The notes beneath the pieces are model-generated. The model saw only the letters and a program-made list of their open reading frames with translations, did no database searches and was not told the DNA's origin. The position numbers were made by a program, and so were the translations under genes. Shown here piece by piece: positions 49,426 to 63,881 of a stretch of DNA of 64,000 nt; position 1 is the stretch's first letter, and every line of letters starts with the position of its first letter. The stretch is from an uncultured bacterium (GTDB lineage Bacteria; Omnitrophota; Gorgyraeia; Zapsychrales; Aceulaceae), in the NCBI GenBank assembly GCA_937930175.1, contig CALGLP010000013.1, positions 267,764 through 331,763 on the forward strand, in the 5' to 3' direction.

Positions 49426-49452
49426 CTATTTTTTTAAAGAAAGGATCCTTTT

Positions 49453-50205
49453 ATGACAATGCGTAAAGACATTCACTTGACCGGCCAGGATTTGATGCAC
49501 ATGGTGCAGCTGAGGCCGCAAGATATCGGTAAATACGCTCTTGTGCCAGGCCCCAAGGAGCGGCTCGATAGTCTTTTGAAAAAGATCGAGAATCCGGTTA
49601 AGAATTTTTCGTTCATGGAATATTCCATGTTTACCGGCACTTTCGCAGGAGCGAAGGTGACTGCGATCAATGGCGGACGATTTTCAGCGGATACGGCTAT
49701 CACGACGGAGATTCTCTGCAATGCGCAAGCCCAATACATGATCCGCATCGGCAGCTGCGGTGCTTTGCGCGAAGACATCAAGGTCGGGGATTTGATCGTG
49801 GCTGAAACCGCGATGCGCGGCGATGGCGTGACCCCGTATTATGTTAAAAATGATTTTAAGACTCAGGCTGATAGTGAGCTGACAAAGATCTTAAGCGATG
49901 TGGCGCAAGGCTCAGGCCTTAACGTCCATCAAGGCAAGGTGTGGTCCACGGATGCGATTTTGCGCGAGACGCGCGAGCATGTCGGCAAGGCTGTTGATGA
50001 GGGTTGTATCGCCGTGGACATGGTGACATCTGTTTTCTTAACCTTAGCGCAACTTTATAAAGTCAAAGCCGCGGTGATCCTTGCCGTCAGCGATAATATC
50101 ATTACCGGCGAAATGGGCTTTATGGATCCTAATTATTATATGGCTGAAGGATCAACGATTGGGATAGCGCTTAATTTGATAAAGAAGTTAGAGGGGAGAA
50201 GTTAG
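49453..50205 (+). CDS. PNP/UDP family-1 nucleoside phosphorylase (MTA / 5'-deoxyadenosine phosphorylase or nucleosidase-like)
   Basis: PF01048-type pattern (ALVPGPKERL, GGRFSADTAITTEIL, IRIGSCGAL, MRGDGVTPYY). Confidence 0.7.
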   Translation: MTMRKDIHLTGQDLMHMVQLRPQDIGKYALVPGPKERLDSLLKKIENPVKNFSFMEYSMFTGTFAGAKVTAINGGRFSADTAITTEILCNAQAQYMIRIGSCGALREDIKVGDLIVAETAMRGDGVTPYYVKNDFKTQADSELTKILSDVAQGSGLNVHQGKVWSTDAILRETREHVGKAVDEGCIAVDMVTSVFLTLAQLYKVKAAVILAVSDNIITGEMGFMDPNYYMAEGSTIGIALNLIKKLEGRS

Positions 50206-50223
50206 AAGGTAGAAGAAAGATAA
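50181..50223 (+). repeat. left arm of the inverted repeat flanking four-helix-bundle gene copy 3 (AAGAAGTTAGAGGGGAGAAGTTAGAAGGTAGAAGAAAG)
   Basis: Reverse-complementary to 50611..50635 (TTTCTCTCTTCTAACTTCTTTAAGG). Overlaps the last codons of the PNP gene. Confidence 0.6.
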
Positions 50224-50229
50224 GATCGA

Positions 50230-50610: not shown

Positions 50611-50635
50611 TTTCTCTCTTCTAACTTCTTTAAGG
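50611..50635 (+). repeat. right arm of the inverted repeat flanking copy 3
   Basis: See 50181..50223. Confidence 0.6.
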
Positions 50636-50640: not shown

Positions 50641-51609
50641 ATGACCGAATCTCCACTTTTTTGGCCAGCGAAATTTGAAGGCAAGACATTGCTTGTCCTT
50701 GATGAGACGCTGTTACCGGAAAAGATGTGCTATGTCAAAGTTCAGAATGTTGCGCAAGCCGTCAAGGTTATTCGTGAGATGAAGACCCGCGCCTTTGGCC
50801 AGTTTTTAGTTGTGCTAAGCACGTTTTTATTGGTACTTAAGAAAAATAAGACATGGAATGATGAGAAATTGATGGCTGAATTGCAAAAGACAGCCCAAGC
50901 CCTTAATGCTAGCCGTCCAACATTTCCGTTTGCAGAAGTAACTGGTATGATTATTGGTTGGGCTAAGAAAGACATGGAAAGTCATGTGCCTTTGCAGGTC
51001 GTGCTTCCTAAAAAGATCGATGGTTTCCTGCAAGGTATCCGTGGACGTCGTTTGGAGCGTGTACAAAGAATCGCGGATGTCTTGATGCAATATAATAATA
51101 TTTTAACGCATTGTAATGTGAGCGGCGAGCTCGCCATGGCAGCACAGCTTTGCAAGGCCAAGGGCAAGGAAATCAATTTCTTTGCAACGGAAACGCGTCC
51201 CTATTTTCAAGGTGCTAAATTAACGTGTTGGGAGCTCAATCGGGTCAAGGCACATGTCACGCTCGTTGCGGATAACGCTGTTGGAACGCTGTTGCGTGAT
51301 CATATGATTGATGCCGTGGTCATGGGATCCGATCGATCATGCGCCAACGGAGATGTCGCTAATAAAATTGGCAGCTATCAAATTGCTGTTGTGGCTAAAG
51401 AATTTGGCGTTCCAGTGTATGTGTTGACGCAGCCCTCGAATAAGATTCCAGCTGGCGCTGATATTCCCATTGAAGTGCGCCATGAAGACGAGCTTTTAAA
51501 ATTTAAGGGTAAGCGCATTACGCCAAAAGGCGTGAAGGGTTTTTATCCAGGGTTTGATGTTATTCCCAATAATCTAATCACACAAGCGATTGCCATCAAT
51601 GTTAATTGA
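50641..51609 (+). CDS. mtnA: eIF-2B alpha/beta/delta-family isomerase (S-methyl-5-thioribose-1-phosphate / 5-deoxyribose-1-phosphate isomerase, MtnA-like)
   Basis: ATETRPYFQGAKLTCWEL...VADNAVG...VMGSDRSCANGDVANKIGSY matches the MtnA / IF-2B family core. Confidence 0.7.
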   Translation: MTESPLFWPAKFEGKTLLVLDETLLPEKMCYVKVQNVAQAVKVIREMKTRAFGQFLVVLSTFLLVLKKNKTWNDEKLMAELQKTAQALNASRPTFPFAEVTGMIIGWAKKDMESHVPLQVVLPKKIDGFLQGIRGRRLERVQRIADVLMQYNNILTHCNVSGELAMAAQLCKAKGKEINFFATETRPYFQGAKLTCWELNRVKAHVTLVADNAVGTLLRDHMIDAVVMGSDRSCANGDVANKIGSYQIAVVAKEFGVPVYVLTQPSNKIPAGADIPIEVRHEDELLKFKGKRITPKGVKGFYPGFDVIPNNLITQAIAINVN

Positions 51610-52084
51610 AGAGAAAAAATCGATTGTTTTATTAAACGGCGTCTTTGAGGATGCTTTCTTTCATCTTTTAAAAGAACAAAAGATTAAGAAAGTGTATGTC
51701 CTTGAGGGTCGGCCGTATTTGGATGGAGCAAAGGCCTTGTGCTCAAAACTTATTAAGAATAGGATACAACCTGTTTTGATTGCAGATAATATGGCTGGGT
51801 TTCTTTTTTATAAAGATTTGGTGAAGGAGGTCTGGATTTCATACCAGGAGCCAGGTGACCAGAATATTTTAGCTAAGGTTGGGAGCCTTGTTTTAAGCGT
51901 GTTAGCGAAAAAGCATCAGGTGGCTGTTAAGGCCTTTCCGTCGGCCAAGCGTAAGAAATATATTGGTCATCCTAAAGATATTTTTAGCTTTGAGGGCAAG
52001 CGTGTTGCGGCCAAGGGTATTTATGGGTTTGTGCCGCTCTTAGAAGATGTCCCAAAAACATATTTATCGGAGATCTATTTATGA
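51590..52084 (+). CDS. truncated eIF-2B-family paralog (C-terminal Rossmann-like half only)
   Basis: VLEGRPYLDGAKALCSKL...VLIADNMAGFL...AKVGSLVLSVLAKKHQVAV parallels the C-terminal half of the preceding protein. Overlaps it by 20 nt. Confidence 0.5.
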   Translation: MPSMLIEEKKSIVLLNGVFEDAFFHLLKEQKIKKVYVLEGRPYLDGAKALCSKLIKNRIQPVLIADNMAGFLFYKDLVKEVWISYQEPGDQNILAKVGSLVLSVLAKKHQVAVKAFPSAKRKKYIGHPKDIFSFEGKRVAAKGIYGFVPLLEDVPKTYLSEIYL

Positions 52085-53076
52085 TCATCAACCGCGTGAA
52101 AAAAGAAATTATTGCATCTGGAAAACTGCTTTGGGAGAAAGACCTTGCTTCAGGGTTAAACGGCAATATCAGCTCTCGGGTGGACAACAAAAAGTATTTT
52201 ATTACTGGTCGCGGAACATGTTTAGGTCGGTTAAGCACCGCGGATATTGTTTTGACGGATGTAGAGGGAAACGTTTATGGTAAGGGTAAGCCGTCATCGG
52301 AAAAGACGTTGCATACGGCGATTTACAAGAATTTTCCTGAGGTGCAGGCGGTGATCCATACCCATTTAACGTATGCGGGTGGGTTTTTCCACGTGAATGA
52401 TACGCTTACACCCAGCACCTTTGAGTCCAGGCTTTATTTAGGAGAGGTTAAATGTGTCGCGCAGTTTACGCCGACAGTCACTGACATTGCGCCGGTTATC
52501 GAGGCGTTAAAGAAAAATAATATCATGGTTTTGAAAAACCACGGTGTTTTGGCCATGGGCAAAAACCTTTTTGACTGTTTTTTGCTGATCCAATGCCTGG
52601 AAGAGGCCGTGAAGATGGATGTGGTGAGCCAAATATATAGACAAGTTTCAAGTGAAAAGTTTCAGGTTTCAAGTAAAAATAAAGAACAAAAAGAGTCTAA
52701 AAGATTTAAGCTGTTTTCTAAAGAGCAGATCGATGAAATTGTGCGCCTTGTGAATGCGGATGAGCAATTAAAGAAGCTTGGTGAATCGACTAATATGACG
52801 ATGCGCCTGGCCGTCAAACTGGATGAGACAGGCCAGGCGTATTGCTTTGATTTTGAAAAGGGAAAGATCAAAAACGTGAGCAATGATGATAATGCTGAAT
52901 TTGTTGTATCAGCGCCGGAAAAAGTCTGGCGTGCTGTTTTTGCTCGTGAAATTGATCCCTTTGTAGCCACGACGCAAAAGAAAATGATCTTAAAAGGTGA
53001 CTTTGCCAAGATCTCCAAATGGTATGCGCCATGCTCGCGGCTTTTTGAGCTTTGGCAGCAAGCACCAGTGGAATAA
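52081..53076 (+). CDS. class II aldolase/adducin-domain protein fused to a C-terminal SCP2 sterol-carrier domain
   Basis: N-terminal aldolase_II pattern (SGLNGNISSRV...ITGRGTCLG...AVIHTHL) plus a C-terminal SCP2-like segment (YCFDFEKGKIKNV...MILKGDFAKISK). Confidence 0.75.
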   Translation: MIINRVKKEIIASGKLLWEKDLASGLNGNISSRVDNKKYFITGRGTCLGRLSTADIVLTDVEGNVYGKGKPSSEKTLHTAIYKNFPEVQAVIHTHLTYAGGFFHVNDTLTPSTFESRLYLGEVKCVAQFTPTVTDIAPVIEALKKNNIMVLKNHGVLAMGKNLFDCFLLIQCLEEAVKMDVVSQIYRQVSSEKFQVSSKNKEQKESKRFKLFSKEQIDEIVRLVNADEQLKKLGESTNMTMRLAVKLDETGQAYCFDFEKGKIKNVSNDDNAEFVVSAPEKVWRAVFAREIDPFVATTQKKMILKGDFAKISKWYAPCSRLFELWQQAPVE

Positions 53077-53080: not shown

Positions 53081-54556
53081 ATGAACGAACACAAATTATT
53101 TATCAACAATGAATGGATTGCTCCGCAAGGGAATGAATATCTTTCTTCTCTTAATCCATCGACGGGTGAAGTCATTGCCAAAATTGCCAAGGGAAAGGCT
53201 GTTGACGCCCAAAAAGCGATCGTGGCTGCTAAGCAGGCGTTTATTTCAGGTGTTTGGAGTTCTTTATCCGTTGAGAAACGCGGACAGGCTTTAGAAAAGA
53301 TTGCAGAAGTGATTCGTCAAAATGCTAAGGAGCTCGCGGAAATTGAGAGCCGCGACACCGGAAAGACCATTAAGCAGACAACATTTATTGATGTGCCGAC
53401 ATGTGCGGATACGTTTTCGTATTTTGCCAAGATTCGAAAAGAATTGGAAGCGCGAAAGCTTAACATTGCCGCGCCGGTGGATAGCAAGGTTTGCTATGAG
53501 CCAATCGGTGTTGTCGCCGCTATTGCGGCATGGAATTATCCCTTGATATTTTTTGGTTGGAAGGTGGCACCGGCATTGATAGCTGGCAATAGCGTTGTTT
53601 ATAAGCCTTCCAGCGTGGCAAGCCTTGCGGTTGTTCGTGTTTTTGAAATCATCGCAGGCATTTTACCCAAAGGCGTTTTAAATCTTGTCACAGGCGGTCG
53701 CGAGGTCGGCGAGGAATTGGCAAGATCAGTTGATGTTGATATGCTGACCTTTACCGGCGGTAATCAAGCGGGCCAGGAAGTCATGCGGCTTGCGGCAACA
53801 AATACCAAAAAACTTTGCCTAGAGCTGGGTGGGAAATCACCCAATATTGTTTTTGCGGATTGCGATATGGATGCCGCGATCGGCGGAACCATGTCGTCGA
53901 TCTTTATGAATCAGGGGCAGATGTGCGTGGCGGGTTCGCGCTTACTTTTAGAGGATAAAATTTATGATGAGTTTGTCGCCAAGTTATCTAAAGAAGCGCA
54001 GCGCCTAAAGATCGGCAATGCTTTGGATTATACAACTGAATTTGGCCCGTTGGTCAGCCGCGAGCATCGTGATGGTGTTTTGAAATTTATTGAGCAAGGG
54101 AAAAAGGAGGGCGCGCGGTTGGTCTACGGAGGCAAAATCGGCGCGGGCGCCGATTTTGATAAAGGGGCGTTTTTAGAGCCCACCATTTTTGCCGATGTTC
54201 AGAATTCTATGGCCATTGCGCAGGAAGAAATTTTTGGTCCGGTGTTGTCTGTGATCAAATTCTCTTCCGCCGAAGAGGCGATCACGATTGCCAACGATAC
54301 AAAGTACGGTCTGGCAGCCATGGTGTGGACCAAGGATAAAGAAAAAGCCGATAGCGTTGCGCGCCAGCTTCGCTGCGGAACGGTCTGGATCAATACCTAC
54401 GGCGGATTTTACAACGAAGCACCCTTTGGCGGATACAAGCAAAGTGGGTTTGGCAGGGAATTAGGAGTTGAAGGCTTGCTTGATTGCATGCAAATCAAGC
54501 ATGTCTGTCGCGACACAACACCTGGCGGAAAATCACTTGCGTCGAGTTGGTTTTGA
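53081..54556 (+). CDS. NAD(P)-dependent aldehyde dehydrogenase
   Basis: ALDH motifs: VTGGREVGEELA, the LELGGKSP glutamate box and the catalytic Cys in GQMCVAGSR. Confidence 0.85.
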   Translation: MNEHKLFINNEWIAPQGNEYLSSLNPSTGEVIAKIAKGKAVDAQKAIVAAKQAFISGVWSSLSVEKRGQALEKIAEVIRQNAKELAEIESRDTGKTIKQTTFIDVPTCADTFSYFAKIRKELEARKLNIAAPVDSKVCYEPIGVVAAIAAWNYPLIFFGWKVAPALIAGNSVVYKPSSVASLAVVRVFEIIAGILPKGVLNLVTGGREVGEELARSVDVDMLTFTGGNQAGQEVMRLAATNTKKLCLELGGKSPNIVFADCDMDAAIGGTMSSIFMNQGQMCVAGSRLLLEDKIYDEFVAKLSKEAQRLKIGNALDYTTEFGPLVSREHRDGVLKFIEQGKKEGARLVYGGKIGAGADFDKGAFLEPTIFADVQNSMAIAQEEIFGPVLSVIKFSSAEEAITIANDTKYGLAAMVWTKDKEKADSVARQLRCGTVWINTYGGFYNEAPFGGYKQSGFGRELGVEGLLDCMQIKHVCRDTTPGGKSLASSWF

Positions 54557-54685
54557 CTGCATGACCCGCGGACAGGGCTTATTTTTCTGATGACAAAGAT
54601 GGCGGGGATAGTAAAGAAAGTTATGGGGTTTCATAAAACCCGTATAACTTAAAACTTGCTACTTATAACTCTTGGAGGATTATTT

Positions 54686-56143
54686 ATGAAGCTTTTATTT
54701 CTTACCCCACCGATTCAAGGCTGGGTTACCCATGGGTTACATAAGGCCCCGAATCAATATTACGCGCAGTTAGCGGCTTATATTCGCATGAAAGGCGTGG
54801 CAGAGGTGAGCGTTTTGGATGCCAAGGCCCTCGACCTTACTTATGATCAAATGATGGCACAAGTGAAAGAATCTGCGCCGGATGTGGTCATGATGGGGGA
54901 TATGCTGCACTCAACGGGCGGCTTGGCCATCGTTTGGCATTTTAATGAAAGTGCTCGTTTGATCAAACAAGCTTTGCCATTAACAAAGATTGTGTGCGGC
55001 GGGCTTTGGTATTCGGCCTACTATCAAGAAGAAATGAAACGAAGTCCTCAGATCGATTTTATTTTAAGCGGAGAAGGTGAGTTGACGCTAGAAGAGCTTC
55101 TTAGCAATCTGAAACATAAGACAAAAGAGTTCAAGGATATTGCTGGGCTTGTTTCGCGTGGCGACGATGGTGCGATTTGCGCCGGGCCTCATCGAGGATT
55201 GATTCCTGATTTAAATGTTCTCCCGATGCCAGCGTATGATCTTTTCCCTATGGATCAATATGTGGGGCACACGTATTGGAAACCTTTTGCGGAACTTATG
55301 ACGTCGCGCGGTTGTCCAGGCGGATGTAATTTTTGTTATGAGTGGAGCATGTATGATCCGCGTTTTAGTAAGACGGATTTTGTTTCTTGGAGAGGTTTTT
55401 CCGCGCAAAGAATTTGCAATGAGTTTGATCTTCTGGAAAAAACATACGGCGTCAAGGTCGTGGTGATTCAAGATGACGCCTTTAATGTGAGTAAGGATAA
55501 AGTAAGGCAATTTTGTGAAGAGAAAATAAAAAGGGGCAATCAGATCAAATGGATCTGTTTAGGTCGGGCAGATGATTGGGCCAATCAGCTCGATCTTGTT
55601 CCTTTGATGGCCAAAGCTGGATTTTTTATGGGGCTTGTGGGCATTGAAGTGTCATCGGATGAAGAACTTAAGAAGCTTGGTAAAGGTGTTACGTTGGCTC
55701 AAATTAAAAAGACGGTGGACACTTTTCGAGCCAACAATATTGCTACGGTGGGTACGGTTTTGATCGGGCTTGAGGATGATGATGAAGCGGCGATCAAGAA
55801 ACGCTTACAAGTCGCTGAAGAGATCGATCCTGATATTTTAGCGTTGGATTATGTGATCCCTGTTCCGGGTTCTCAGCCTTGGGGTAAGGCGATCGCTTAC
55901 GGATGGATTGATCCGCAAAAAATTAATTTAAAAGATTGGGATTTTCATCAACCTGTTATTCCGACCAAGCATCTTTCGATTCAAGACGTGGGGCGTTTGG
56001 GAAGCTGGTGCATGCGGGAATTTTATTCGAAGCCTGAGCGTATTCATCGGATCATGGATAGCGATTATGATCTATTAGCCAAATTGTGCGTGAAAGATTT
56101 TATGAGCAATATCGCAAAGTTCGAACAGCGTTCTTCGGCTTAA
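54686..56143 (+). CDS. B12-binding-domain radical SAM protein (class B radical SAM)
   Basis: N-terminal cobalamin-binding Rossmann-like region followed by CPGGCNFC (CxxxCxxC). Confidence 0.8.
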   Translation: MKLLFLTPPIQGWVTHGLHKAPNQYYAQLAAYIRMKGVAEVSVLDAKALDLTYDQMMAQVKESAPDVVMMGDMLHSTGGLAIVWHFNESARLIKQALPLTKIVCGGLWYSAYYQEEMKRSPQIDFILSGEGELTLEELLSNLKHKTKEFKDIAGLVSRGDDGAICAGPHRGLIPDLNVLPMPAYDLFPMDQYVGHTYWKPFAELMTSRGCPGGCNFCYEWSMYDPRFSKTDFVSWRGFSAQRICNEFDLLEKTYGVKVVVIQDDAFNVSKDKVRQFCEEKIKRGNQIKWICLGRADDWANQLDLVPLMAKAGFFMGLVGIEVSSDEELKKLGKGVTLAQIKKTVDTFRANNIATVGTVLIGLEDDDEAAIKKRLQVAEEIDPDILALDYVIPVPGSQPWGKAIAYGWIDPQKINLKDWDFHQPVIPTKHLSIQDVGRLGSWCMREFYSKPERIHRIMDSDYDLLAKLCVKDFMSNIAKFEQRSSA

Positions 56144-56196: not shown

Positions 56197-57117
56197 ATGT
56201 CTGGATTTATCTTCTTTTTGATCGTTGTTTTTGTTATATTTTTTATTTCTTCAACGAGCCAGGGGTCAAGGCGTAATCCTAATGTGATCGATATGGATTT
56301 TACGCAAGCTTTTTTTAGGAAAGGGCGCTTGGCGATTGTTCTCGTTGCCCTTGGGCTCATCTGTTTTGTTGTCCTTGTGCGTTGTGTTCGTGTTGTGCCA
56401 GCGGGTACGGTTGGCGTTTATGATATTTTTGGTAAAGTTTCTGCGGATGAACGAAAGCCAGGACTCAATTTTATTAACCCTTTTGCGAATTTAGTTTTGA
56501 TGAATGTGAAGACCGAGGAATTGACCGAAAACATGCCTGTTCCCTCCAAAGAGGGATTGTCCATTGCTTTAGATGTTTCGATTCTTTATCGTCTAGATCC
56601 TTCTAAGGCAAGTGATATTTATCAAAGCGTTGGTACTAACTACCGAGAGATCGTTGTTGTGCCCCAGTTCCGTTCAGCATGCCGAGGCGCGACGGTAGGT
56701 TATGAAGCTAAAGCTCTTTATACGTCTAATCGTGAAGAAATTTCACAAAAAATTCATAGCGAGCTTAAAGAAATGTTAGCTGAGCGTGGGGTTATTTTAG
56801 AAAAAGTTCTTCTTCGTTCTATTAAAATGCCTCCAACCGTGGCTAATGCCATTGAATTAAAGCTGAAATTTGAGCAAGAATCTGAACAAATGAAATTTGT
56901 TCTTCAGAAAGAAAGACAGGAAGCTGAACGTCGCGTGATCGAAGCTGAAGGGATCGCCAAGGCCCAGGAAATCATCAACAAGACTTTGACGCCCGCGTAT
57001 TTGCAATTAGAGGCGATCCAGGCGCAAAAGAAAATGGCGGAAAGCCCAAATCACACAACTGTTTATATTCCTTCGGGTGATAATGGTATCCCGCTGATTC
57101 GTAACATTGACAAATAG
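56197..57117 (+). CDS. SPFH/band-7 (prohibitin/stomatin-like) membrane protein
   Basis: N-terminal TM segment, an SPFH domain (VVPAGTVGVYDIFGK...), and a C-terminal coiled-coil. Confidence 0.8.
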   Translation: MSGFIFFLIVVFVIFFISSTSQGSRRNPNVIDMDFTQAFFRKGRLAIVLVALGLICFVVLVRCVRVVPAGTVGVYDIFGKVSADERKPGLNFINPFANLVLMNVKTEELTENMPVPSKEGLSIALDVSILYRLDPSKASDIYQSVGTNYREIVVVPQFRSACRGATVGYEAKALYTSNREEISQKIHSELKEMLAERGVILEKVLLRSIKMPPTVANAIELKLKFEQESEQMKFVLQKERQEAERRVIEAEGIAKAQEIINKTLTPAYLQLEAIQAQKKMAESPNHTTVYIPSGDNGIPLIRNIDK

Positions 57118-57134: not shown

Positions 57135-57389
57135 ATGCAATGGGAAAAAACAACACAGCAGAAGTATGAACTGATGATTTCTAAAATTCCTTTGTTCCAT
57201 CGCGAGATCACCAAACAAGTTGTTCCTCTGAAAGCTGAGGAAAACGCCAAAGCGCGTGGGGCGTTGGCGATTGAAGAAGGCGATGTGGTTCAGGCTTTTT
57301 TAAGCGAAGTCCCTAAGGCTTTCTTCAGCATGATGATTCGCTTGATGGATGACGTGGGGCTTGATTATAAAAAAGAAATTAGAAAATAG
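57135..57389 (+). CDS. small protein with a PCP_red-like pattern (standalone domain related to the C-terminus of protochlorophyllide reductase subunit B), tentative
   Basis: WEKTTQQKYELMISKIPLFHREITKQVV...ARGALAIEEGDVVQAF resembles the PF08369 pattern (W.EEA...L..IP.F.R). Not verifiable here. Confidence 0.3.
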   Translation: MQWEKTTQQKYELMISKIPLFHREITKQVVPLKAEENAKARGALAIEEGDVVQAFLSEVPKAFFSMMIRLMDDVGLDYKKEIRK

Positions 57390-57499: not shown

Positions 57500-58498
57500 A
57501 TGAGCATTGCAATTATTGGCGCTGGTGCCATTGGATCTGTCGCAGCAGCTTTTCTTTCCAAAGCTGGCTTGGATGTTGTCTTGATTGGAAAAAAAGAACA
57601 GGTTGATTTTATTAATCAGCATGGGTTGACTGTCCGAGCTGTTCATGGAAGCGAGCATTTTAAAATTAGGGCCTTGCCGCATCTTGACAAGCCTTATGAT
57701 CTTGTTATTTTTACGGTCAAGACGCAGGATCTCGAAGACGCATATCATGCAAATCATGAATATTTAGATCATGGTCTTATTTTGACGAGCCAAAATGGTG
57801 TTCAGGCGGATAATATCTTGAGCTCCCATTTTGAGCGGGAAAAGATGTTTTCAAGTATTGTGATGTTTGGCGCAACGTATATCAATCCTGGTCAGGTGAT
57901 CTTTAATTTTGAAGGAAGCTGGATCATTGGAAAACCTTTCACGAATGTTGACCCTAAGACCCATGAGATCGCGGAGACCTTGGGGAAGGCTTTTCCCGTT
58001 GTTGTTTCAACCAATATCATGGGGATGAAGTGGCTTAAGCTTTTTGTGAATTTTAATAATTGTCTTTGCGCGGTGCTAGGGAAGTCGATGCAGGAAACAT
58101 TTGCGGATATGGATTTTTGTCGTGCGAGCATTATGCTTTTGAAAGAGGGCCTGGGCGTTGTTGAGCGGGCGCATATTGAACTGGTGTCGTTACCTGATTT
58201 TCCCGTTGATAGAATAGATGGGCTTGCGGCCATGCCGCTTGATCAAGCGGCGGCGATCATGCACAAAACATTGACATCGCTTAGCAAGGAACCGGTGTAT
58301 GGTTCAATTTTGCAAAGCGTGATGCGCAAGCGGACAAGTGAAATTGATTTTATCAACGGTGAGATTGTTCGTTTGTCCAGACAAATGCGCCAGGATGTGC
58401 CCCTCAATGAACGCATCGTGGATTTGGTGCATGAGGTTGAGCGGACAGGAAAATTTACAAGTGTTGAAGACGTGAAGAAGATTTTTAAGCTAGGATAA
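57500..58498 (+). CDS. 2-dehydropantoate 2-reductase family (ApbA/PanE-like NADPH oxidoreductase)
   Basis: N-terminal Rossmann motif IAIIGAGAIGS and ketopantoate-reductase family length and pattern. Could serve pantothenate synthesis or act as a ketoreductase in the cluster. Confidence 0.7.
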   Translation: MSIAIIGAGAIGSVAAAFLSKAGLDVVLIGKKEQVDFINQHGLTVRAVHGSEHFKIRALPHLDKPYDLVIFTVKTQDLEDAYHANHEYLDHGLILTSQNGVQADNILSSHFEREKMFSSIVMFGATYINPGQVIFNFEGSWIIGKPFTNVDPKTHEIAETLGKAFPVVVSTNIMGMKWLKLFVNFNNCLCAVLGKSMQETFADMDFCRASIMLLKEGLGVVERAHIELVSLPDFPVDRIDGLAAMPLDQAAAIMHKTLTSLSKEPVYGSILQSVMRKRTSEIDFINGEIVRLSRQMRQDVPLNERIVDLVHEVERTGKFTSVEDVKKIFKLG

Positions 58499-58580: not shown

Positions 58581-59858
58581 ATGAAAGAAAGTTTACCCAT
58601 GAAAAAAAGACGAGTCGTAGTGACAGGAGTTGGGGTTGTGTCACCTAATGGTATTGGCAATGAAGCTTGCTGGAAGGGTATGATCAACGGCGTTTCCGGC
58701 GTCAAGCGCGTTACGGAGTTTGATGTGTCGATGTTCATGACCCAGGTGGCGGCGCAGGTCAGGGATTTTGATCCGCACAAGCTTGGACTAACGCACGATG
58801 AAGCCGTGCGTATGGATCGTTATGTTCAATTTGCTGTTGTTGCGGCGCGCATGGCGCTGGAAGATTCCAAGATGGATTTAAGTAAAGTCAATAAAGAGCG
58901 CATGGGGGTTTCGCTTGCCAATGCGATTTGTGGCACCAAATATATGGAAGAAGAGTTTGCGCTTGTGACCGACAGTGGCAAGGAAGCCATTGATCCGGCC
59001 AAGGTGCGACCGGATCTTTACGACGCGGCGATGTTTAATACGCCTTCGAGTGAGATTTCGGCGAAGTATGGCCTGAAAGGAATCTGCAATACGATTTCAA
59101 CGGGGTGTACGGCGGGGACCGATTCTGTCGGGTTTTCTTTTGAAACGATTCGCGATGGCGATATCGATATCATGATTACTGGTGCTTCCGAGGCACCGAT
59201 CACGCCCATTACATTTGGTGCTTTTGATGTGGTTAATGTTTTGGCTGTGCGCAATGATGAACCTGAAAAAGCCTCGAGGCCTTTTGATAATGAACGCAAT
59301 GGATTTGTTATTTCAGAAGGCTGCGGCATTTTGATCCTCGAAGAGCTTGAGCACGCCAAGGCGCGCGGGGCCAAGATCTATTGCGAGGTCATTGGTTTTG
59401 GAACAACGTGCAATGCCTATCACATGACGGATCTGCCATCTGATGGCGAACCGATGAAGGATTGTATTGTTTTGGCCATGGAAGATGCAGACATTAAGCC
59501 GCAAGATATTGATTATATTAATGCACATGGCTCGTCGACTAGACAAAATGATGTCTTTGAAACCAATGCCTATAAAATGGCGTTAGGGGATTGGGCGTAC
59601 AAGATTCCTATTAGCTCGCTCAAGTCTATGATCGGACACCCTCTAGCTGGCGCTAATGGTGTTGAGCTAGCGGTGGGTGCGTTGATTTTTGAACGTAACA
59701 TGTTGCCGCCAACCATTAATCAGGTGCATCCTGATCCGGCATGCGATTTGGATTATGTGCCCAATGTCGCGCGTCCTAAGGTTGTCAATTGTATGCTTAA
59801 AACTTCGAGTGGTTTTTCTGGAGTGCATTCGTCGATGGTATTAAGGAGGTATAAGTAA
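58581..59858 (+). CDS. beta-ketoacyl synthase (KS; FabF/KS-alpha-like, catalytic Cys-His-His intact)
   Basis: Active-site context ISTGCTAGTDSV and the His motifs INAHGSST and MIGHPLAGANG. Start may be the ATG at 58599. Confidence 0.85.
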   Translation: MKESLPMKKRRVVVTGVGVVSPNGIGNEACWKGMINGVSGVKRVTEFDVSMFMTQVAAQVRDFDPHKLGLTHDEAVRMDRYVQFAVVAARMALEDSKMDLSKVNKERMGVSLANAICGTKYMEEEFALVTDSGKEAIDPAKVRPDLYDAAMFNTPSSEISAKYGLKGICNTISTGCTAGTDSVGFSFETIRDGDIDIMITGASEAPITPITFGAFDVVNVLAVRNDEPEKASRPFDNERNGFVISEGCGILILEELEHAKARGAKIYCEVIGFGTTCNAYHMTDLPSDGEPMKDCIVLAMEDADIKPQDIDYINAHGSSTRQNDVFETNAYKMALGDWAYKIPISSLKSMIGHPLAGANGVELAVGALIFERNMLPPTINQVHPDPACDLDYVPNVARPKVVNCMLKTSSGFSGVHSSMVLRRYK

Positions 59859-59860
59859 AA

Positions 59861-59888
59861 ATGTGTTATGTGAGATGTGATATGTGAG
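59861..59888 (+). repeat. left arm of the inverted repeat flanking four-helix-bundle gene copy 4 (ATGTGTTATGTGAGATGTGATATGTGAG)
   Basis: Reverse-complementary (with a few mismatches) to 60316..60341 (CACCTGACACATATCACATGACACAT). Confidence 0.65.
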
Positions 59889-60285
59889 AGGCAAAGAAAA
59901 GACAGTGAGTGTGAATTATCATCTATATAATTTTGATTTTGAAAAGCTTGATGTGTATCAGGAAGCCTTAGATTTTGCGAATGATGTATTTAAAATTACG
60001 AATGGTTTTCGAAGAGAGATCCAGTATTCTTTGGGAGATCAATTTAGGAGAGCTGCGCTTTCCATCTGCAATAACATCGCTGAGGGAAGTCAGAAAACAA
60101 CCCGGGGGAGAAAACAGTTTTATCATTATGCCCTGGATTCTGCTAGGGAATGTATTCCGATGATCAGTTTGTCCTTAAAGCAAAAAGAGATCTCACCTGA
60201 TGTTGAGATGCAGTTAAGGGGAAGGTGCTTGAAGATTTGTAATATGGTCTATAGACTCATACGATCTGTCGATGACAAGGGTTGA
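59884..60285 (+). CDS. four-helix-bundle protein (TIGR02436 family), copy 4; inserted between the KS and CLF-like genes
   Basis: LDVYQEALDFANDVF...LGDQFRRAALSICNNIAEGSQK...ALDSAREC. Start codon uncertain (GTG at 59884 or 59911). Confidence 0.7.
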   Translation: MRGKEKTVSVNYHLYNFDFEKLDVYQEALDFANDVFKITNGFRREIQYSLGDQFRRAALSICNNIAEGSQKTTRGRKQFYHYALDSARECIPMISLSLKQKEISPDVEMQLRGRCLKICNMVYRLIRSVDDKG

Positions 60286-60315
60286 CATTCCGGGCGTTGA
60301 TTTTTGTTTTACATT

Positions 60316-60341
60316 TCACCTGACACATATCACATGACACA
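60316..60341 (+). repeat. right arm of the inverted repeat flanking copy 4
   Basis: See 59861..59888. Confidence 0.65.
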
Positions 60342-60361
60342 TTTTTAAGAAAGGTTTTTCA

Positions 60362-61612
60362 ATGAAGAAGATTGCTATTACAGGAATGGGCATTGTGTCC
60401 CCCAGCGGGATCGATGAAAGAAAATTTTGGGCCAATATTAGCCATGGCCGCTCAGCGGTTAAGAAAATAGAACGGTTTGATGCGTCAAAATATCCATCGC
60501 GTATCGCCGGACAAGTGCATGAGCTAGATGCTTATAGCAACGTATCGTCGAGACTTCTGAAGAAAATTGATGTTTTTTCGCATATGGCGCTTGTAGCTTC
60601 AGAAATTGCTATTCAAGACGCCAAGCTTGACATGGAAAAGGAAAATTTAAAACGCGCTGGTATTTTTGCCGGTAATGCGATTGGTGGTTGGCTCTACGCT
60701 GAAACAGAGCTACGCGATATGTATATCGAGGGGCGTGAGGGGGTTAGTCCTTTTATGGCCTCGGCATGGTTTCCTGCCGCGCCTCAGGGGCAGATTTCCA
60801 TTCATTATAAAATGAAAGGCTATAGCAAGACGATTGTCTCGGATCGCGCGAGTGCCTTGATGGCGATTGCTTATGGTGCGAAAAATCTTAACGATGGAAA
60901 AAATGATTTTATCTTGGCGGGGGGCATGGAGGCACCGGTGTCGCCGTATGGACTTTTGTGCTGCAATACGTCGGGTGTTCTCAGCAAGCGAAATGATGAC
61001 CCAGAGACTGCCTATCGTCCTTTTGATAAAACACGTGATGGTTTGGCTATTGCCGAAGGCGCCGGTATTCTTATACTAGAAAAGGAAGAACGTGCTAAAA
61101 AGCGTGGTGTGCCTATTAATGGATATATTATTGGCTATGGAACGACCACGGATGGCATTGATCGCATCGAACCGGCTAGTGATGGACTTCAGCTCGCGCG
61201 GGCGATTGAACTCGCCCTTGATGACGCAGAGCTTGAGCCTGGCCAGATTGATTATGTTTGTTTGGACGGTGTCGCGACACCGATTGGCGATATTTCGGAA
61301 ACGCGCGGTATCAAAAAGGCTTTTGGTGCGCATGCGAAAAAGATCCCTATGTCTGCGCCTAAGTCTGTTTTTGGTAATATGTTGGGAGCTTGTGGGGCTG
61401 TGGATGTTGCGGCGACCCTTTTAGCCATGGAGCATGCAACAGTTCCACCGACGATCAATTTGACGCATCCGGATCCTGATTGCGATTTGGATTATTGTCC
61501 TAATAAAGCGCAGAGCAAAGAAATCAAATATGCTCTTGTGATTAATCGCGGACGCGGCGGGATCAATTGTGTTTTAGTTTTAGAAAAGGCCAATGAAAAT
61601 GAATTTCTTTAA
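60362..61612 (+). CDS. ketosynthase-like protein lacking the catalytic triad (chain-length-factor / KS-beta-like)
   Basis: Full thiolase-fold KS length and a GxGxG N-terminus. Aligning with the upstream KS, the active-site Cys position is SDRASA, the first His motif is LDGVATPIG, and the second is GNMLGACGAV (His replaced by Asn). No C/H/H remains. Confidence 0.8.
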   Translation: MKKIAITGMGIVSPSGIDERKFWANISHGRSAVKKIERFDASKYPSRIAGQVHELDAYSNVSSRLLKKIDVFSHMALVASEIAIQDAKLDMEKENLKRAGIFAGNAIGGWLYAETELRDMYIEGREGVSPFMASAWFPAAPQGQISIHYKMKGYSKTIVSDRASALMAIAYGAKNLNDGKNDFILAGGMEAPVSPYGLLCCNTSGVLSKRNDDPETAYRPFDKTRDGLAIAEGAGILILEKEERAKKRGVPINGYIIGYGTTTDGIDRIEPASDGLQLARAIELALDDAELEPGQIDYVCLDGVATPIGDISETRGIKKAFGAHAKKIPMSAPKSVFGNMLGACGAVDVAATLLAMEHATVPPTINLTHPDPDCDLDYCPNKAQSKEIKYALVINRGRGGINCVLVLEKANENEFL

Positions 61613-61919
61613 TTTCAAGCGCAAGCATTGGATCACCGTGATTGTTTTTTTGATTGTGATGATTGGCGTGGTTGCGGGATTTGCTTGTTTTTTAGAAACG
61701 CAAATTCAGAAAACGCGTACAATCATGCGAGGCTATCTTATTCCTGAGCCTTTTAATGTGCCGGAGACCCGGGCAAATGCTCAGGCTCAGGATCCAGACA
61801 GGGAGGGGCGCTTGTCAAGACGAATGGATGTTGCTTCTCCAAAAGGTGCGTGTACGTCGTGCCATTATGGGGATATTGAAGAAATGTCCAAACCTTTGAT
61901 GAATGAAGAGCTGGAATGA
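61593..61919 (+). CDS. small membrane-anchored protein with a CxxCH motif (possible monoheme c-type cytochrome-like)
   Basis: One TM segment and CTSCH near the C-terminus. Overlaps the CLF-like gene by 20 nt. Confidence 0.4.
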   Translation: MKMNFFNFKRKHWITVIVFLIVMIGVVAGFACFLETQIQKTRTIMRGYLIPEPFNVPETRANAQAQDPDREGRLSRRMDVASPKGACTSCHYGDIEEMSKPLMNEELE

Positions 61920-61975
61920 GACCTCTTATTGGTGAGGCCGCCGGGGTCTTGACCCTCAGAAAGGATGAATAGTGT

Positions 61976-62248
61976 ATGAGTTCAAAAGCATTTATTTTTT
62001 TCACAGTTCTCTTTATTGTAGGCCTTGCTATTGTGGGTTGGTATTGTTTGGATAGGTATTATTTCATAGATCCATTTGGCATGCCAAAAGGCTCTGAATA
62101 TCTTTCGGGAGGAAACGTAGTTGTTGCTGAAGATCGTCAAAGTTGTGCAAATGAGAAGATCGCTCGAGACTTTCCGAGTTGGATAAGGGACAAGTCGTTG
62201 CGCATTTATAATTATATTGAAGGTCAAGTTAAAGTATTTTTTAAATAA
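61976..62248 (+). CDS. small membrane-anchored hypothetical protein
   Basis: 90 aa with one TM segment. Confidence 0.35.
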   Translation: MSSKAFIFFTVLFIVGLAIVGWYCLDRYYFIDPFGMPKGSEYLSGGNVVVAEDRQSCANEKIARDFPSWIRDKSLRIYNYIEGQVKVFFK

Positions 62249-62274
62249 TCTTAATAATAATTTGGAGGGTAAGC

Positions 62275-62511
62275 ATGAGCGTAGAAGAAAAAGTTAAAGG
62301 TATTTTTAAAGATGTTTTAGATATTGGGCCAGATGAGATTAAAGAAGATGTGAAGCTTGATGTCGCGCTTGGTATTGACTCAACGGAAATGGTGGAGATC
62401 ACGGTGGCTCTTAAAAAAGCGTTCAATTTGACGATCCCTAATAATCAATTTAAGAAAACGCAGACGTTTAATGAGCTTGTTGCGTTTATCAAGGCTCAAG
62501 GAGCGCAGTAG
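62275..62511 (+). CDS. acyl carrier protein
   Basis: 78 aa with the phosphopantetheine-attachment motif LGIDSTEMVE; GGAGGG RBS. Confidence 0.85.
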   Translation: MSVEEKVKGIFKDVLDIGPDEIKEDVKLDVALGIDSTEMVEITVALKKAFNLTIPNNQFKKTQTFNELVAFIKAQGAQ

Positions 62512-62590
62512 CGTATTTCGTCGATCGTGAAGCATGAAGTGATAAAAGTTTTTTAAAATACGTTTCACGCATAACGATTCACGAGTAAAA
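62512..62590 (+). repeat. hairpin-forming repeat related to 58503..58580
   Basis: CGTGAAGCATGAAG ... ATACGTTTCACGCATAACGATTCACG. Confidence 0.5.
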
Positions 62591-62603
62591 AAAGGATTTT
62601 ATT

Positions 62604-63407
62604 ATGAAAATTATTGATTTAAGTTTGCCGATTGACGATACCCTTGTCGAGACGCATGCGGCCAAGATTGAGCGCATCAGCCATGCCTATGGCGTGGAAC
62701 ATTTTAATGAAATCATGATGAGTAAAAAACCTAACGGCAAAGAACGCTTTGCCAAGGGCGAGCGCGTCGCGACCGCAGAGGAAATTCCCGATGGGGAATT
62801 GCTTTCTTTGGAGATTGTGAATTCTTCGGTGCATATGGGCACGCATGTGGATGCGCCATTTCACTATGGAAGTAAGTGCGCAGGCAAGCCCGCGAAGATG
62901 ATCGAGGATGTGCCCCTGGAGTGGTGCATCGGCCCTGGCGTTGTTCTTAATTTTACACATATGAAATTTCCGGATGTTATTAAAAAAGAAGACATTGTTG
63001 CCGCGCTTAAAAAAATTCATTACAAAATCAAACCGATGGACATTGTTTTGATTTACACTGGTGGTGATAAACTTCTTGGCAGCGATGACTACGTGAATAA
63101 GTATGTTGGCATGATGCCCGATGCCGTGGAGTATCTTTTGGATCAGGGCGTCAAGATGATGGGGGTTGATACCATTGGTTTGGACCGTCCGTGTTTTGGG
63201 ATGTTTAAAGAATTCTTGGATACTAAAGATAAGAATAAGATTTGGCCATCACATTTTCTTGGTCGTCGTCGGGAATTTTGCCACATGGAACGTATGGGCA
63301 ATCTGGGCGCGATCCCCAAACCGTTTGGGTTTATGGTGTCGTGCTTGCCTATTAAAGTTCGCCACGCAGGTGCTGGTTGGTGTAGAGCAATCGCGATGGT
63401 TGATTAA
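62604..63407 (+). CDS. putative cyclase family protein (kynurenine formamidase-like fold, PF04199)
   Basis: SVHMGTHVDAPFHY motif (the HxGTHxDxPxH metal site of the cyclase family). Confidence 0.75.
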   Translation: MKIIDLSLPIDDTLVETHAAKIERISHAYGVEHFNEIMMSKKPNGKERFAKGERVATAEEIPDGELLSLEIVNSSVHMGTHVDAPFHYGSKCAGKPAKMIEDVPLEWCIGPGVVLNFTHMKFPDVIKKEDIVAALKKIHYKIKPMDIVLIYTGGDKLLGSDDYVNKYVGMMPDAVEYLLDQGVKMMGVDTIGLDRPCFGMFKEFLDTKDKNKIWPSHFLGRRREFCHMERMGNLGAIPKPFGFMVSCLPIKVRHAGAGWCRAIAMVD

Positions 63408-63437
63408 CAATTTAAAATAATTTCTGGAGGTACTGAT

Positions 63438-63881
63438 ATGGGACACACCGTCAATAGCATTATTATTAACGCACCGTACGAAAAAGTTTTTGACACCTCG
63501 AATCATATTGAGCGATGGACAGAACTTTTTGGCGGGGAATACGTCAAAGCCGATGTTTTAAGCCGTGTTGGCAATCGCATTGAGTTTCGCTTGACCAATA
63601 ACGAAGGCCAATCCTGGACATCGTTTCGTCTTTTATTCAAGGAGCACAAATTTGCGTATGCGCAAAAGAATGAGCCAACGTTTCCGTTTAGGTACATGAA
63701 AATTGTCTGGCTTTACACCGAAGTTGAAGGCGGGATCTTGATGACCTGGATCCAGGATTTTGAAGTCGACCCGAAAGCCAAGTTTACCGACGAGCAAGTG
63801 ATCAACGGTGTCAATGAGCACTCCCAACATAATTTAAAGATATTTAAGGCTGTTATTGAACAAGAGGCTCAAAATCGATAA
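63438..63881 (+). CDS. SRPBCC-superfamily protein (polyketide cyclase/dehydrase-like, Bet v1 fold)
   Basis: Size of about 147 aa and a pattern (IIINAPYEKVFD...W..F) typical of the Polyketide_cyc2 / aromatase-cyclase small proteins. Confidence 0.65.
   Translation: MGHTVNSIIINAPYEKVFDTSNHIERWTELFGGEYVKADVLSRVGNRIEFRLTNNEGQSWTSFRLLFKEHKFAYAQKNEPTFPFRYMKIVWLYTEVEGGILMTWIQDFEVDPKAKFTDEQVINGVNEHSQHNLKIFKAVIEQEAQNR

Follow-up and report, generated by a model that had tools for sequence, protein, structure and literature searches.

Type II polyketide synthases (PKSs) are known from diderm bacteria, among them Photorhabdus, myxobacteria and Negativicutes, as well as from actinomycetes such as Streptomyces coelicolor, in which the actinorhodin minimal PKS (ActI-ORF1/ORF2/ORF3) consists of a ketosynthase (KS-alpha) with a Cys-His-His triad, an adjacent dead paralogue and a discrete acyl carrier protein (ACP). 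For non-actinomycetes, an 'ancestral' architecture of KS, chain-length factor (CLF), ACP, TcmN and OxyN has been described, and the bacteria that carry the clostrubin and dendrubin clusters live as strict anaerobes (PMC7693217). Clostrubin (ClrA/ClrB, Clostridium beijerinckii/puniceum), dendrubin (den) and the Photorhabdus anthraquinone (ant) are the closest known systems to the locus described here, with which they share a non-actinomycete KS-alpha/CLF/ACP set and also an aromatase of the TcmN type and a cyclase resembling OxyN.

We analysed a 64,000-nucleotide stretch of DNA (hereafter the window) from a member of Candidatus Omnitrophota, and conclude with a probability of roughly 0.85 that it carries the core of a genuine type II (iterative, aromatic) PKS of the deep-branching, non-actinomycete kind. 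Its KS-CLF-ACP-cyclase-TcmN series has the gene content of the ancestral architecture (PMC7693217), with the cyclase gene preceding the TcmN-like one. The cluster starts at position 47476 and continues beyond the window end, and its synteny is kept in at least 30 Omnitrophota species. The core comprises five genes:

58581..59858, + strand: KS1, KS-alpha, catalytic ketosynthase (Cys176, His316, Lys348, His353)
60362..61612, + strand: KS2, catalytically dead chain-length factor (KS-beta; Arg162, Asp302, Lys334, Asn339)
62275..62511, + strand: discrete ACP (Pfam PP-binding, 1.6e-12)
62604..63407, + strand: PF04199 metal-dependent cyclase-family protein in an OxyN-like place in the cluster (Pfam, 2.5e-31)
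63438..63881, + strand: monodomain TcmN/WhiE/ZhuI-type aromatase/cyclase of the SRPBCC family (PDB 2rez/3tvq/3tl1/3tvr, E 1e-24)

The ketosynthase pair

The original prediction had marked these five open reading frames as a type II PKS-like module; all were found where it placed them, and Pfam profiles match each, including both ketoacyl-synt domains of KS1 (N 3e-46, C 1e-28) and KS2 (N 8e-44, C 5e-27). In most genomes the KS1 and KS2 genes either overlap or are separated by 1-19 nt. KS1, whose translation might instead begin at Met7, has the intact catalytic triad claimed for it, and the C/H/K/H set is kept in 29/29 orthologues. Its top PDB matches are AntD of the ant cluster (6smo_B, 7.6e-114) and the actinorhodin KS-alpha (1tqy_A, 1e-113), with FabF behind at 1e-108, and its closest plasmid-borne relatives are located in type II PKS clusters. 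KS1 identity among orthologues is 73-94% (65% in the divergent locus L033), which is unusually high for a dispensable secondary-metabolite cluster in small genomes and is a point against such a reading.

KS2 is 36% identical to KS1. When aligned to FabF structures, its Cys position is Arg162 (S-D-R-A-S-A), its first His position Asp302 (LDGVAT) and its second His position Asn339 (FGNMLG), while the catalytic Lys is kept. The earlier reading that all three catalytic residues are lost therefore stands, with the correction that the Cys position, given as 'Asp/Arg', is Arg and not Asp. Across the 34 orthologues these positions are R (33) or K (1), D (34) and N (34), and the Lys is present in all 34. 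The closest named relatives are proteins from Ktedonobacter, Archangium and Clostridium beijerinckii/puniceum, of which the C. beijerinckii protein P0127 (44% identity to KS2) is taken, from the match in species and family, to be ClrB, the CLF of the clostrubin cluster. Many non-actinomycete CLFs, ClrB included, have Arg in place of the Cys, and this residue is no oddity of the locus; the Clostridium CLF retains its second His, whereas KS2 has lost both. The actinorhodin CLF shares the Asp at the first His position, but differs at the Cys position (Gln; Arg in KS2) and at the second His (Arg; Asn in KS2). AntE carries Asp at the Cys position (PMC6638757).

Because FabF structures outscore the actinorhodin CLF as matches of KS2 (302 versus only 233 bits), its placement as a CLF rests on phylogeny and on its non-actinomycete relatives. 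In a neighbour-joining (not maximum-likelihood) tree with bootstrap of 43 sequences, which did not include aryl-polyene and ladderane KSs, KS1 falls within the KS-alpha clade (100%) and KS2 within the clade containing every CLF of the tree (100%), beside clostrubin, Ktedonobacter, Archangium, Azospirillum and Bacillus CLFs; this clade also includes two Cys-retaining KS-like metagenome proteins (P0184, P0167). Both KS1 and KS2 lie outside the FabF group, membership of which would have spoken against the predicted KS-alpha/CLF relationship.

Carrier protein and predicted ring-forming proteins

The ACP gene follows KS2 by 11-125 nt in most genomes. Its product keeps the DS serine for phosphopantetheine (GIDSTEMVEI), and the motif core DSTE[ML]VE[IL] is readable in 30/32 orthologues, the motif search having chosen another DS in the remaining two. 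All 31 PF04199 orthologues contain the metal motif HxG[TS]HxDx[PS]xH. The window protein shares 49% identity with the cyclase from a type II PKS cluster on a Bacillus plasmid. Its identity to many 'cyclase family' proteins encoded elsewhere than in PKS clusters is 38-40%, so that its cyclase role is assigned mainly from context. Kynurenine formamidase was considered and rejected, since the arylformamidase model gives 49.8 bits against a 223-bit cut-off and no kynurenine pathway lies nearby, in keeping with the cyclase-family assignment made at the outset. The SRPBCC protein (Pfam Polyketide_cyc2, 6e-8), earlier called a cyclase/aromatase component, can now be placed specifically as TcmN-type: residues corresponding to the TcmN pocket (W28, F32, E34, Y35, W65, S67, R69, M91, W95, W108, Q110) are kept in 29/29 orthologues. 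An SRPBCC aromatase likewise accompanies the actinorhodin PKS. The window protein has a single domain, where den and ant have a TcmN-TcmN pair.

Genes flanking the core

Synteny conserved across Omnitrophota agrees with the original prediction that genes upstream of the KS pair belong with the PKS:

47476..48981, + strand: AMP-forming acyl-CoA/acyl-ACP ligase (NCBIfam), first gene of the conserved cluster
49453..50205, + strand: PNP_UDP_1 nucleoside phosphorylase/nucleosidase, divergent DeoD/uridine phosphorylase-like (100 bits)
50641..51609, + strand: MtnA-like aldose-1-phosphate/ketose-1-phosphate isomerase, IF-2B family (NCBIfam MtnA 229 bits, cut-off 271)
51590..52084, + strand: short IF-2B/MtnA paralogue (164 aa), overlapping the isomerase gene end
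52081..53076, + strand: FucA-like class II aldolase with an SCP2 lipid-binding domain fused at its C-terminus (FucA_Meth 2.5e-34)
53081..54556, + strand: NAD(P)-dependent aldehyde dehydrogenase (BADH-like, 559 bits; program-made ORF starts at 52997)
54656..56143, + strand: B12-binding radical SAM enzyme (NCBIfam best BchE 183 and HpnJ 137 bits, both far under cut-off)
57135..57389, + strand: small DUF2621-like protein (PF11084, 1.5e-4)
57500..58498, + strand: ApbA/PanE-family NAD(P)H oxidoreductase directly upstream of KS1 (Pfam ApbA 1.4e-30, ApbA_C 6e-18)

The ligase scores 462 bits on a long-chain-fatty-acid-CoA ligase subfamily model, 342 on a MenE-like and only 267 on an acetate-CoA ligase model (NCBIfam), and its gene opens the cluster in every locus or contig long enough on the upstream side to include it, as fragments in L001 and L003 and complete in L025 and L033. 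The PNP_UDP_1 protein also matches HpnG and MTA/SAH nucleosidase models; its gene is syntenic in Omnitrophota and present in a rearranged version of the cluster in a Deltaproteobacteria metagenome-assembled genome (MAG; L046). The isomerase (PDB 1t9k, 1e-40) keeps both the Cys of the THCN motif and the Asp of GxDR, and the short paralogue, which matches the MtnA profile only from about position 146 to 283 (E 1e-11), is conserved beside the long copy in Omnitrophota and L046. The aldolase aligns with PDB 4c24 at its Zn ligands (HxH + H) and catalytic SSE Glu, and the 100%-identical protein P0304 has PF00596 and PF02036. The aldehyde dehydrogenase also matches lactaldehyde and acetaldehyde dehydrogenase models; tungsten-type aldehyde:ferredoxin oxidoreductase (AFOR) genes stand in for it in L046 and L050. 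The radical SAM gene is found in most orthologous clusters and was not detected in the recovered parts of L003, L005 and L006. DUF2621-like orthologues occur at 50-77% in nearly all loci, and the ApbA gene keeps its place ahead of KS in Omnitrophota as well as in L046 and L049/L050.

Beyond the window end lie genes for an MFS exporter, an SDR ketoreductase and an Amidohydro_2 protein, then an rRNA operon; a downstream search for ketoreductase and export genes had been suggested originally. The ApbA/PanE gene proposed as candidate ketoreductase is a conserved neighbour of the KS; the gene just past the window end probably encodes the ketoreductase of the classical (SDR) kind. Neither a malonyl-CoA:ACP transacylase nor a phosphopantetheinyl transferase was found in the cluster.

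Other genes are insertions or are specific to the window's sub-clade:

61593-61919 and 61976-62248, + strand: two small single-pass membrane proteins between CLF and ACP, a lineage-specific insertion
49031..49396, + strand: inserted four-helix-bundle gene (23S rRNA IVP family) with inverted repeats at both sides, not a pathway part
50230-50610 and 59884-60285: further IVP-family copies (PF05635 3e-24 for the third copy)
56197..57117, + strand: sub-clade-specific Band 7/SPFH membrane protein (program-made ORF starts at 56086)

The small membrane protein pair, a CxxCH protein and its neighbour originally counted as operon parts, occurs only in the window's own sub-clade (L003, L005, partly L007), and in the 61593-61919 protein the CxxCH His is not conserved; this CxxCH protein is no conserved component of the cluster. 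PF01145 (Band 7/SPFH) was found in L003 and L051 and is absent from most other clusters. Each IVP-family copy is flanked by inverted repeats, and these genes are missing from most orthologous operons.

Proposed pathway and alternative readings

From gene identity, catalytic residues, tree placement and synteny we infer the following order of steps. KS1 and KS2 would form a heterodimer in which KS1 performs repeated decarboxylative Claisen condensations with malonyl-ACP on the discrete ACP, while KS2 would do no chemistry and instead shape the chain-length-determining tunnel. The TcmN-type protein would fold and aromatise the poly-beta-keto chain, and the PF04199 cyclase would close further rings of the predicted product. 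The SDR ketoreductase, the Amidohydro_2 protein (probably a decarboxylase) and the MFS efflux pump would complete the pathway, with the ApbA reductase and B12-radical SAM enzyme probably acting as oxygen-independent tailoring enzymes. Lacking Gln and both His, KS2 probably cannot prime by malonyl decarboxylation, and the ligase is probably involved in priming or ACP loading.

That the KS pair belongs instead to a fatty-acid-type or highly reducing system (a FabF duplicate, or an aryl-polyene, polyene, ladderane-like or cispentacin-like synthase) we consider very improbable. FabF is the top NCBIfam match of KS1 (466 bits) and KS2 (401 bits) and heads the PDB matches of KS2, but both scores are under the FabF equivalog cut-off of 493.75, the tree places both proteins elsewhere, and the polyene-type KS 6kxd, which we take to be Iga11, reaches 223 bits against KS1 where KS-alpha reaches 384. 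AmcF gives 140 and 157 bits (cut-off 325), the radical SAM enzyme 76 against 360 bits on the ladderane-type model TIGR04072, and the cluster contains a TcmN-type aromatase and no hotdog dehydratase or enoyl reductase. On the side of that reading, antiSMASH surveys assign 'ladderane' and aryl-polyene clusters to Omnitrophota (PMC9902471, PMC13635244), which may or may not include this locus.

Within the aromatic PKS reading, the upstream nucleoside-to-acid cassette admits two interpretations. Purine nucleoside phosphorylase, MtnA-type isomerase and class II aldolase are the trio of the DHAP shunt (5'-deoxyadenosine/MTA salvage), which together with aldehyde dehydrogenase also recur in the fluoroacetate pathway of Streptomyces cattleya. 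The cassette has these families in the same reaction order, with all models under cut-offs, an aldolase-SCP2 fusion, a second, truncated isomerase paralogue, a FadD/MenE-like ligase following, a position within a PKS cluster and no fluorinase or chlorinase. We tentatively suggest that it salvages by-products: the radical SAM enzyme, present in almost all cluster versions, would release 5'-deoxyadenosine and S-adenosylhomocysteine, the phosphorylase would clear these inhibitors, and isomerase, aldolase and dehydrogenase would turn 5-deoxyribose into DHAP and acetate. The ligase would then load the ACP, as proposed for the Photorhabdus CoA ligase AntG, which raises product 13-fold (PMC6638757). 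However, L003, L005 and L006 retain the cassette with no radical SAM gene detected in their recovered parts, and neither the SCP2 domain nor the short IF-2B paralogue has a role in simple salvage. The replacement of the dehydrogenase by AFOR further suggests selection on the aldehyde-to-acid step itself, and would suit a dedicated supply line, which we nevertheless regard as unlikely: following the logic of both known pathways, a 5'-substituted 5'-deoxyadenosine (possibly 5'-deoxyadenosine, methylthioadenosine or an adenosylated lipid) would pass through phosphorylase, isomerase, aldolase-SCP2, dehydrogenase (or AFOR) and ligase via X-CH2-CHO and X-CH2-COOH to a thioester priming KS1. Its enzyme series is complete with intact active-site residues and keeps synteny with the PKS across 25 or more Omnitrophota species; in the Deltaproteobacteria MAG it lies on the opposite side of the PKS and shows the non-orthologous AFOR replacement. 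A CLF devoid of residues needed for decarboxylative priming, a ligase that is not acetate-specific and the lipid-binding domain on the aldolase are also consistent with it. Against this, the cluster of the divergent L033 has ligase and phosphorylase but no isomerase, aldolase or dehydrogenase, enzymes to make an unusual 5'-substituted adenosine, a priming KSIII and an acyltransferase are absent, and the basis is gene neighbourhood.

Comparison with known clusters

The ant cluster, like the window, includes a CoA ligase (PMC6638757). Tailoring genes differ from those of actinorhodin, the window cluster being free of oxygen-dependent monooxygenases, and the ApbA reductase, B12-radical SAM, Amidohydro_2 and nucleoside-to-acid cassette were not seen in comparator type II PKS loci L043-L045 or in the den gene list (PMC7693217). 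The original prediction considered such a complement unusual for a diderm; type II PKSs were, however, already known from the diderms named above, and KS-CLF pairs of Omnitrophica had been listed by a 2023 catalogue (PMC10132072). Less ordinary is the conservation: whereas clr/den/ant-type clusters are sporadic, this cluster is kept lineage-wide, nearly unchanged across dozens of Omnitrophota nanobacteria, all uncultured, and with nucleoside-cleaving genes linked to it in every case. What sets it apart is this phylum-wide conservation together with the cassette linked to it (nucleoside phosphorylase, MtnA-like isomerase, aldolase-SCP2, aldehyde dehydrogenase, CoA ligase), alongside B12-radical SAM and ApbA genes that are unusual PKS partners and probably act in tailoring.

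Core genes of the cluster

From sequence comparison, and with a probability that we put at roughly 85%, the five genes listed below would form the core of a type II aromatic polyketide synthase (PKS) in this member of the Omnitrophota. All five open reading frames claimed in the original prediction were found in place on the forward strand, each with the expected Pfam domains:

58581–59858, + strand, ketosynthase KS1, the candidate KS-alpha (Pfam ketoacyl-synt N and C domains)
60362–61612, + strand, ketosynthase paralogue KS2, the candidate chain-length factor, CLF (Pfam ketoacyl-synt N and C domains)
62275–62511, + strand, acyl carrier protein, ACP (Pfam PP-binding, 1.6e-12)
62604–63407, + strand, putative cyclase (Pfam PF04199)
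63438–63881, + strand, SRPBCC protein, putative aromatase (Pfam Polyketide_cyc2 / Polyketide_cyc)

KS1 and KS2 are 36% identical, and their genes overlap or lie 1–19 nt apart in most genomes. KS1 has an intact catalytic set (Cys176, His316, Lys348 and His353), and all 29 orthologues examined share its C176/H316/H353 triad. Residue-by-residue alignment of KS2 to FabF structures places Arg162 at the catalytic Cys position (motif SDRASA), Asp302 at the first His (LDGVAT) and Asn339 at the second (FGNMLG), with the active-site Lys retained; across 34 orthologues these positions hold Arg in 33 (Lys in 1), Asp in 34 and Asn in 34. Alignment and orthologues alike thus bear out the earlier claim that an intact ketosynthase is accompanied by one that has lost all three catalytic residues. 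The ACP carries its phosphopantetheine serine in the motif GIDSTEMVEI, the core of which (DSTE[ML]VE[IL]) recurs in 30 of 32 orthologues. Residues F109/T112/F116 of the Act CLF read as W/A/L in KS2 in an alignment of uncertain correspondence, and a chain-length prediction from these gate residues was dropped because that correspondence is too uncertain.

Placement of KS1 and KS2

Among solved structures, KS1 is best matched by AntD (7.6e-114), from the Photorhabdus anthraquinone PKS, and by the actinorhodin KS-alpha (1e-113), with FabF next at 1e-108. Its best plasmid-borne relatives belong to type II PKS clusters found in Azospirillum, Bacillus and many Streptomyces. The top matches of KS2 are hundreds of Candidatus Omnitrophota MAG proteins at 74–87% identity. 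Few close relatives emerged when the 50%-identity representatives were searched exhaustively; they include a protein from a Deltaproteobacteria MAG (58% identical, likewise with Arg, Asp and Asn at the three positions), a Clostridium beijerinckii/puniceum protein (44% identical) that is presumably the clostrubin CLF ClrB and, as the other named relatives among the representatives, Ktedonobacter and Archangium proteins.

A neighbour-joining tree of 43 sequences (200 bootstraps; aryl-polyene KS sequences left out) puts KS1, along with its orthologues, within the KS-alpha clade (100% bootstrap). KS2 and its orthologues share a second clade, again supported at 100%, with all of the CLFs sampled (actinorhodin, Streptomyces, Clostridium, Ktedonobacter, Archangium, Azospirillum and Bacillus), and the FabF sequences lie outside both clades. 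The tree and the catalytic residues together sustain the KS-alpha/CLF interpretation. The CLF clade also includes two Cys-retaining KS-like metagenome proteins, P0184 and P0167. In the second of these, a metagenome representative, the Cys is kept and the two His are replaced by Phe and Gln, an inactivation pattern that is the reverse of that in KS2.

Gln at the Cys position of CLFs is a hallmark of actinomycetes, where it serves decarboxylative priming. This Gln is absent from KS2 and from all 34 of its orthologues, and the same alignment has Arg at this position in the Clostridium, Ktedonobacter, Bacillus, Azospirillum and Archangium CLFs; AntE has Asp (PMC6638757). Gln is not a defining residue for CLFs outside actinomycetes and, since Arg is usual among these and AntE carries Asp, the actinomycete Gln is the derived or special case. 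The CLFs of Omnitrophota and Deltaproteobacteria stand out by having lost both His. A CLF that carries Arg at the Cys position mostly has an acidic residue, Asp or Glu, in place of the first His, a pairing that could reflect a salt bridge occupying the inactive pocket.

Predicted ring-forming enzymes and alternative identities

Among solved structures, the SRPBCC protein matches only the TcmN, WhiE and ZhuI aromatase/cyclases (E 1e-24), and 11 TcmN pocket residues (W28, F32, E34, Y35, W65, S67, R69, M91, W95, W108 and Q110) show no variation across 29 orthologues, both in agreement with its predicted role as an aromatase-type ring-forming component. The PF04199 protein keeps the metal motif HxG[TS]HxDx[PS]xH in 31 of 31 orthologues and is 49% identical to the cyclase of a type II PKS cluster on a Bacillus plasmid. 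Because many family members outside PKS clusters are also 38–40% identical to it, its designation as a putative OxyN-like cyclase derives mostly from its fixed place between ACP and aromatase and from the published ancestral architecture KS-CLF-ACP-TcmN-OxyN (PMC7693217).

Other identities for the core were rejected. A housekeeping FabF/FabB role for the two ketosynthases, which the original prediction had named as a counter-reading, disagrees with their place outside the FabF group in the tree and with TIGR03150 scores that fall short of the 493.75 cut-off (466 for KS1, 401.5 for KS2). Another counter-reading, a kynurenine formamidase (KynB) in kyn context, would have the PF04199 protein resemble that enzyme; it matches PDB KynB structures at 7e-7 to 1e-3, scores 49.8 against 223 bits for TIGR03035 and has no kyn genes in its cluster. 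A cispentacin-type AmcF/AmcG pair was likewise rejected (139.6 and 157 bits against the AmcF equivalog cut-off of 325), as were an aryl-polyene or highly reducing PKS, given a TcmN-type aromatase and no dehydratase by Pfam among the cluster genes, and a ladderane-type lipid cluster, the B12-radical SAM protein reaching 75.9 bits against the TIGR04072 cut-off of 360.

Conservation and extent

The KS2 gene is present in 31 Omnitrophota species in a scan with one genome per species, the closest orthologues being those of a MAG (90%) and of Candidatus Aceula lacicola (84%). Gene order is nearly invariant across the Omnitrophota loci: acyl-CoA ligase, PNP-family phosphorylase, MtnA-like isomerase, short isomerase paralogue, class II aldolase-SCP2, aldehyde dehydrogenase, B12-radical SAM, DUF2621, ApbA reductase, KS1, KS2, ACP, cyclase and aromatase. 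A CxxCH membrane protein that had been counted in the cluster was rejected as a conserved redox partner, being lineage-specific and having a His that is not conserved. The ketoreductase and export genes that the original prediction proposed to look for downstream do occur just past the window end, where L051, a public locus containing the window and DNA beyond it, has genes for an MFS efflux pump, an SDR ketoreductase, a PC4-like protein and an Amidohydro_2 enzyme. Of these, MFS, SDR and Amidohydro_2 are also conserved downstream in other genomes. On this basis the cluster measures about 20 kb, beginning at 47476 and extending some 3.4 kb beyond the window. About 3.5 kb beyond the window end lies a complete rRNA operon (16S-tRNA-tRNA-23S-5S, L051 13995–19432). 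It adjoins the last cluster gene directly and in the same orientation.

Three four-helix-bundle genes of the 23S rRNA intervening-sequence (IVS) protein family sit in gaps of the PKS operon (48986–49432, 50180–50632 and 59856–60347), each flanked by 34–51 nt imperfect inverted repeats built of short tandem units; for the third copy, the predicted RNA fold pairs both flanks around the entire ORF (z = -2.6). These genes are absent from most orthologous operons and therefore look like IVS-style cassettes inserted into the mRNA.

Elsewhere in the window, an AlgE-type (Alginate_exp) outer-membrane beta-barrel at 11085–12452 (E 8e-28) is consistent with the diderm cell that had been assumed. A ParA/MinD-type ATPase fused to a glycogen-binding AMPK1_CBM/CBM48 domain and, nearby, a glycogen phosphorylase-like protein are encoded at 13656–14834 and 22513–24546. 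Two adjacent giant ORFs (32688–37721 and 37751–43042; 1677 and 1763 aa), the first without a Pfam match, are followed by surface-protein-like proteins with InlB B-repeat and FG-GAP repeats.

The upstream enzyme cassette

The enzyme series upstream of the synthase is complete, with intact active sites. It comprises a PNP-family phosphorylase, an MtnA-like isomerase (catalytic Cys and Asp present), a FucA-like class II aldolase fused to SCP2 (Zn ligands and catalytic Glu present), an aldehyde dehydrogenase and a FadD/MenE-like ligase; the phosphorylase, isomerase and aldolase possess their catalytic residues and all score below curated cut-offs. The matches listed in a homologue search with the aldolase-SCP2 protein were saturated with Omnitrophota. 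We take the cassette reactions to be those of the DHAP shunt and the fluoroacetate pathway, in which a 5'-substituted deoxyadenosine yields DHAP and a two-carbon aldehyde that is converted to the acid. The DHAP shunt (MtnP/MtnA/Ald2) uses the same three families, its substrates being 5-deoxy or 5-methylthio pentoses. Overlapping the end of the full-length isomerase gene is a fragment-like MtnA paralogue (51590–52084, 164 aa) that covers the C-terminal half of the fold only and is conserved in Omnitrophota and the Deltaproteobacteria locus.

This locus, in MAG GCA_964580455.1, holds the PKS and the same accessory families in rearranged order, with two aldehyde:ferredoxin oxidoreductases (AFOR) in place of the aldehyde dehydrogenase. 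That the same families surround the PKS in another order, and with AFOR for the dehydrogenase, argues for functional coupling. A third lineage retains AFOR-ApbA-KS-CLF-ACP-cyclase-aromatase-Amidohydro_2. In one divergent Omnitrophota locus the cassette is reduced to the ligase and phosphorylase, which counts against a strict requirement for it. The Deltaproteobacteria locus further encodes an MMPL transporter, a DUF1329 protein and a phytoene-desaturase-like flavoprotein.

Against this background, the cassette may salvage a by-product of the radical SAM enzyme encoded within the conserved gene order, with the ligase loading the ACP like AntG, an explanation that we consider plausible at somewhat below even odds. 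The cassette might instead be devoted to supplying a primer to a PKS with a CLF unable to self-prime. This would suit a coupled cassette around a Gln-free CLF and sits awkwardly with the divergent locus; we regard it as rather unlikely. More speculative again, and in our judgement improbable, is a joint reading in which PKS and cassette would constitute one ancient anaerobic pathway of Omnitrophota and some Desulfobacterota. Here a radical-SAM-derived (or other 5'-substituted) deoxyadenosine would give a two-carbon-extended acid priming a non-self-priming type II PKS, and the product would be an aromatic compound associated with the membrane and shared by nearly all of these nanobacteria, such as a quinone-like redox carrier or protective pigment, rather than a sporadic antibiotic.

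Significance

Actinomycetes are the best-known source of aromatic type II polyketides; the few type II PKSs outside them are regarded as relics of ancestral machinery, and some are prized for expression in E. coli. A number of diderm and anaerobic bacteria are known to carry type II PKSs (PMC7693217, PMC6638757), and Candidatus Omnitrophica is one of the 14 phyla for which a 2023 catalogue records KS-CLF pairs, with no further analysis (PMC10132072). Our literature search on Omnitrophota type II PKSs returned this mention only, with the cluster, its conservation and its accessory genes not described, and a search on PKSs linked to MtnA or a nucleoside phosphorylase found no description. Overall, the original observation is confirmed and its interpretation supported. 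The core is already a known kind, and it is the fixed accessory set and lineage-wide conservation that set this cluster apart.

The enzymes leading from deoxyadenosine to a two-carbon acid, linked here to a PKS, could, if functional, constitute a new feeding or priming route, and the oxygen-independent tailoring candidates (B12-radical SAM, ApbA and AFOR) hint at O2-free finishing of aromatic polyketides. The Omnitrophota orthologues also offer a large natural pool of soluble-host candidates for KS/CLF engineering. For the organisms themselves, a lineage of bacteria that are uncultured, ultra-small and possibly host-dependent, the strong purifying selection seen on this type II PKS throughout suggests that its product has a core role in their physiology.
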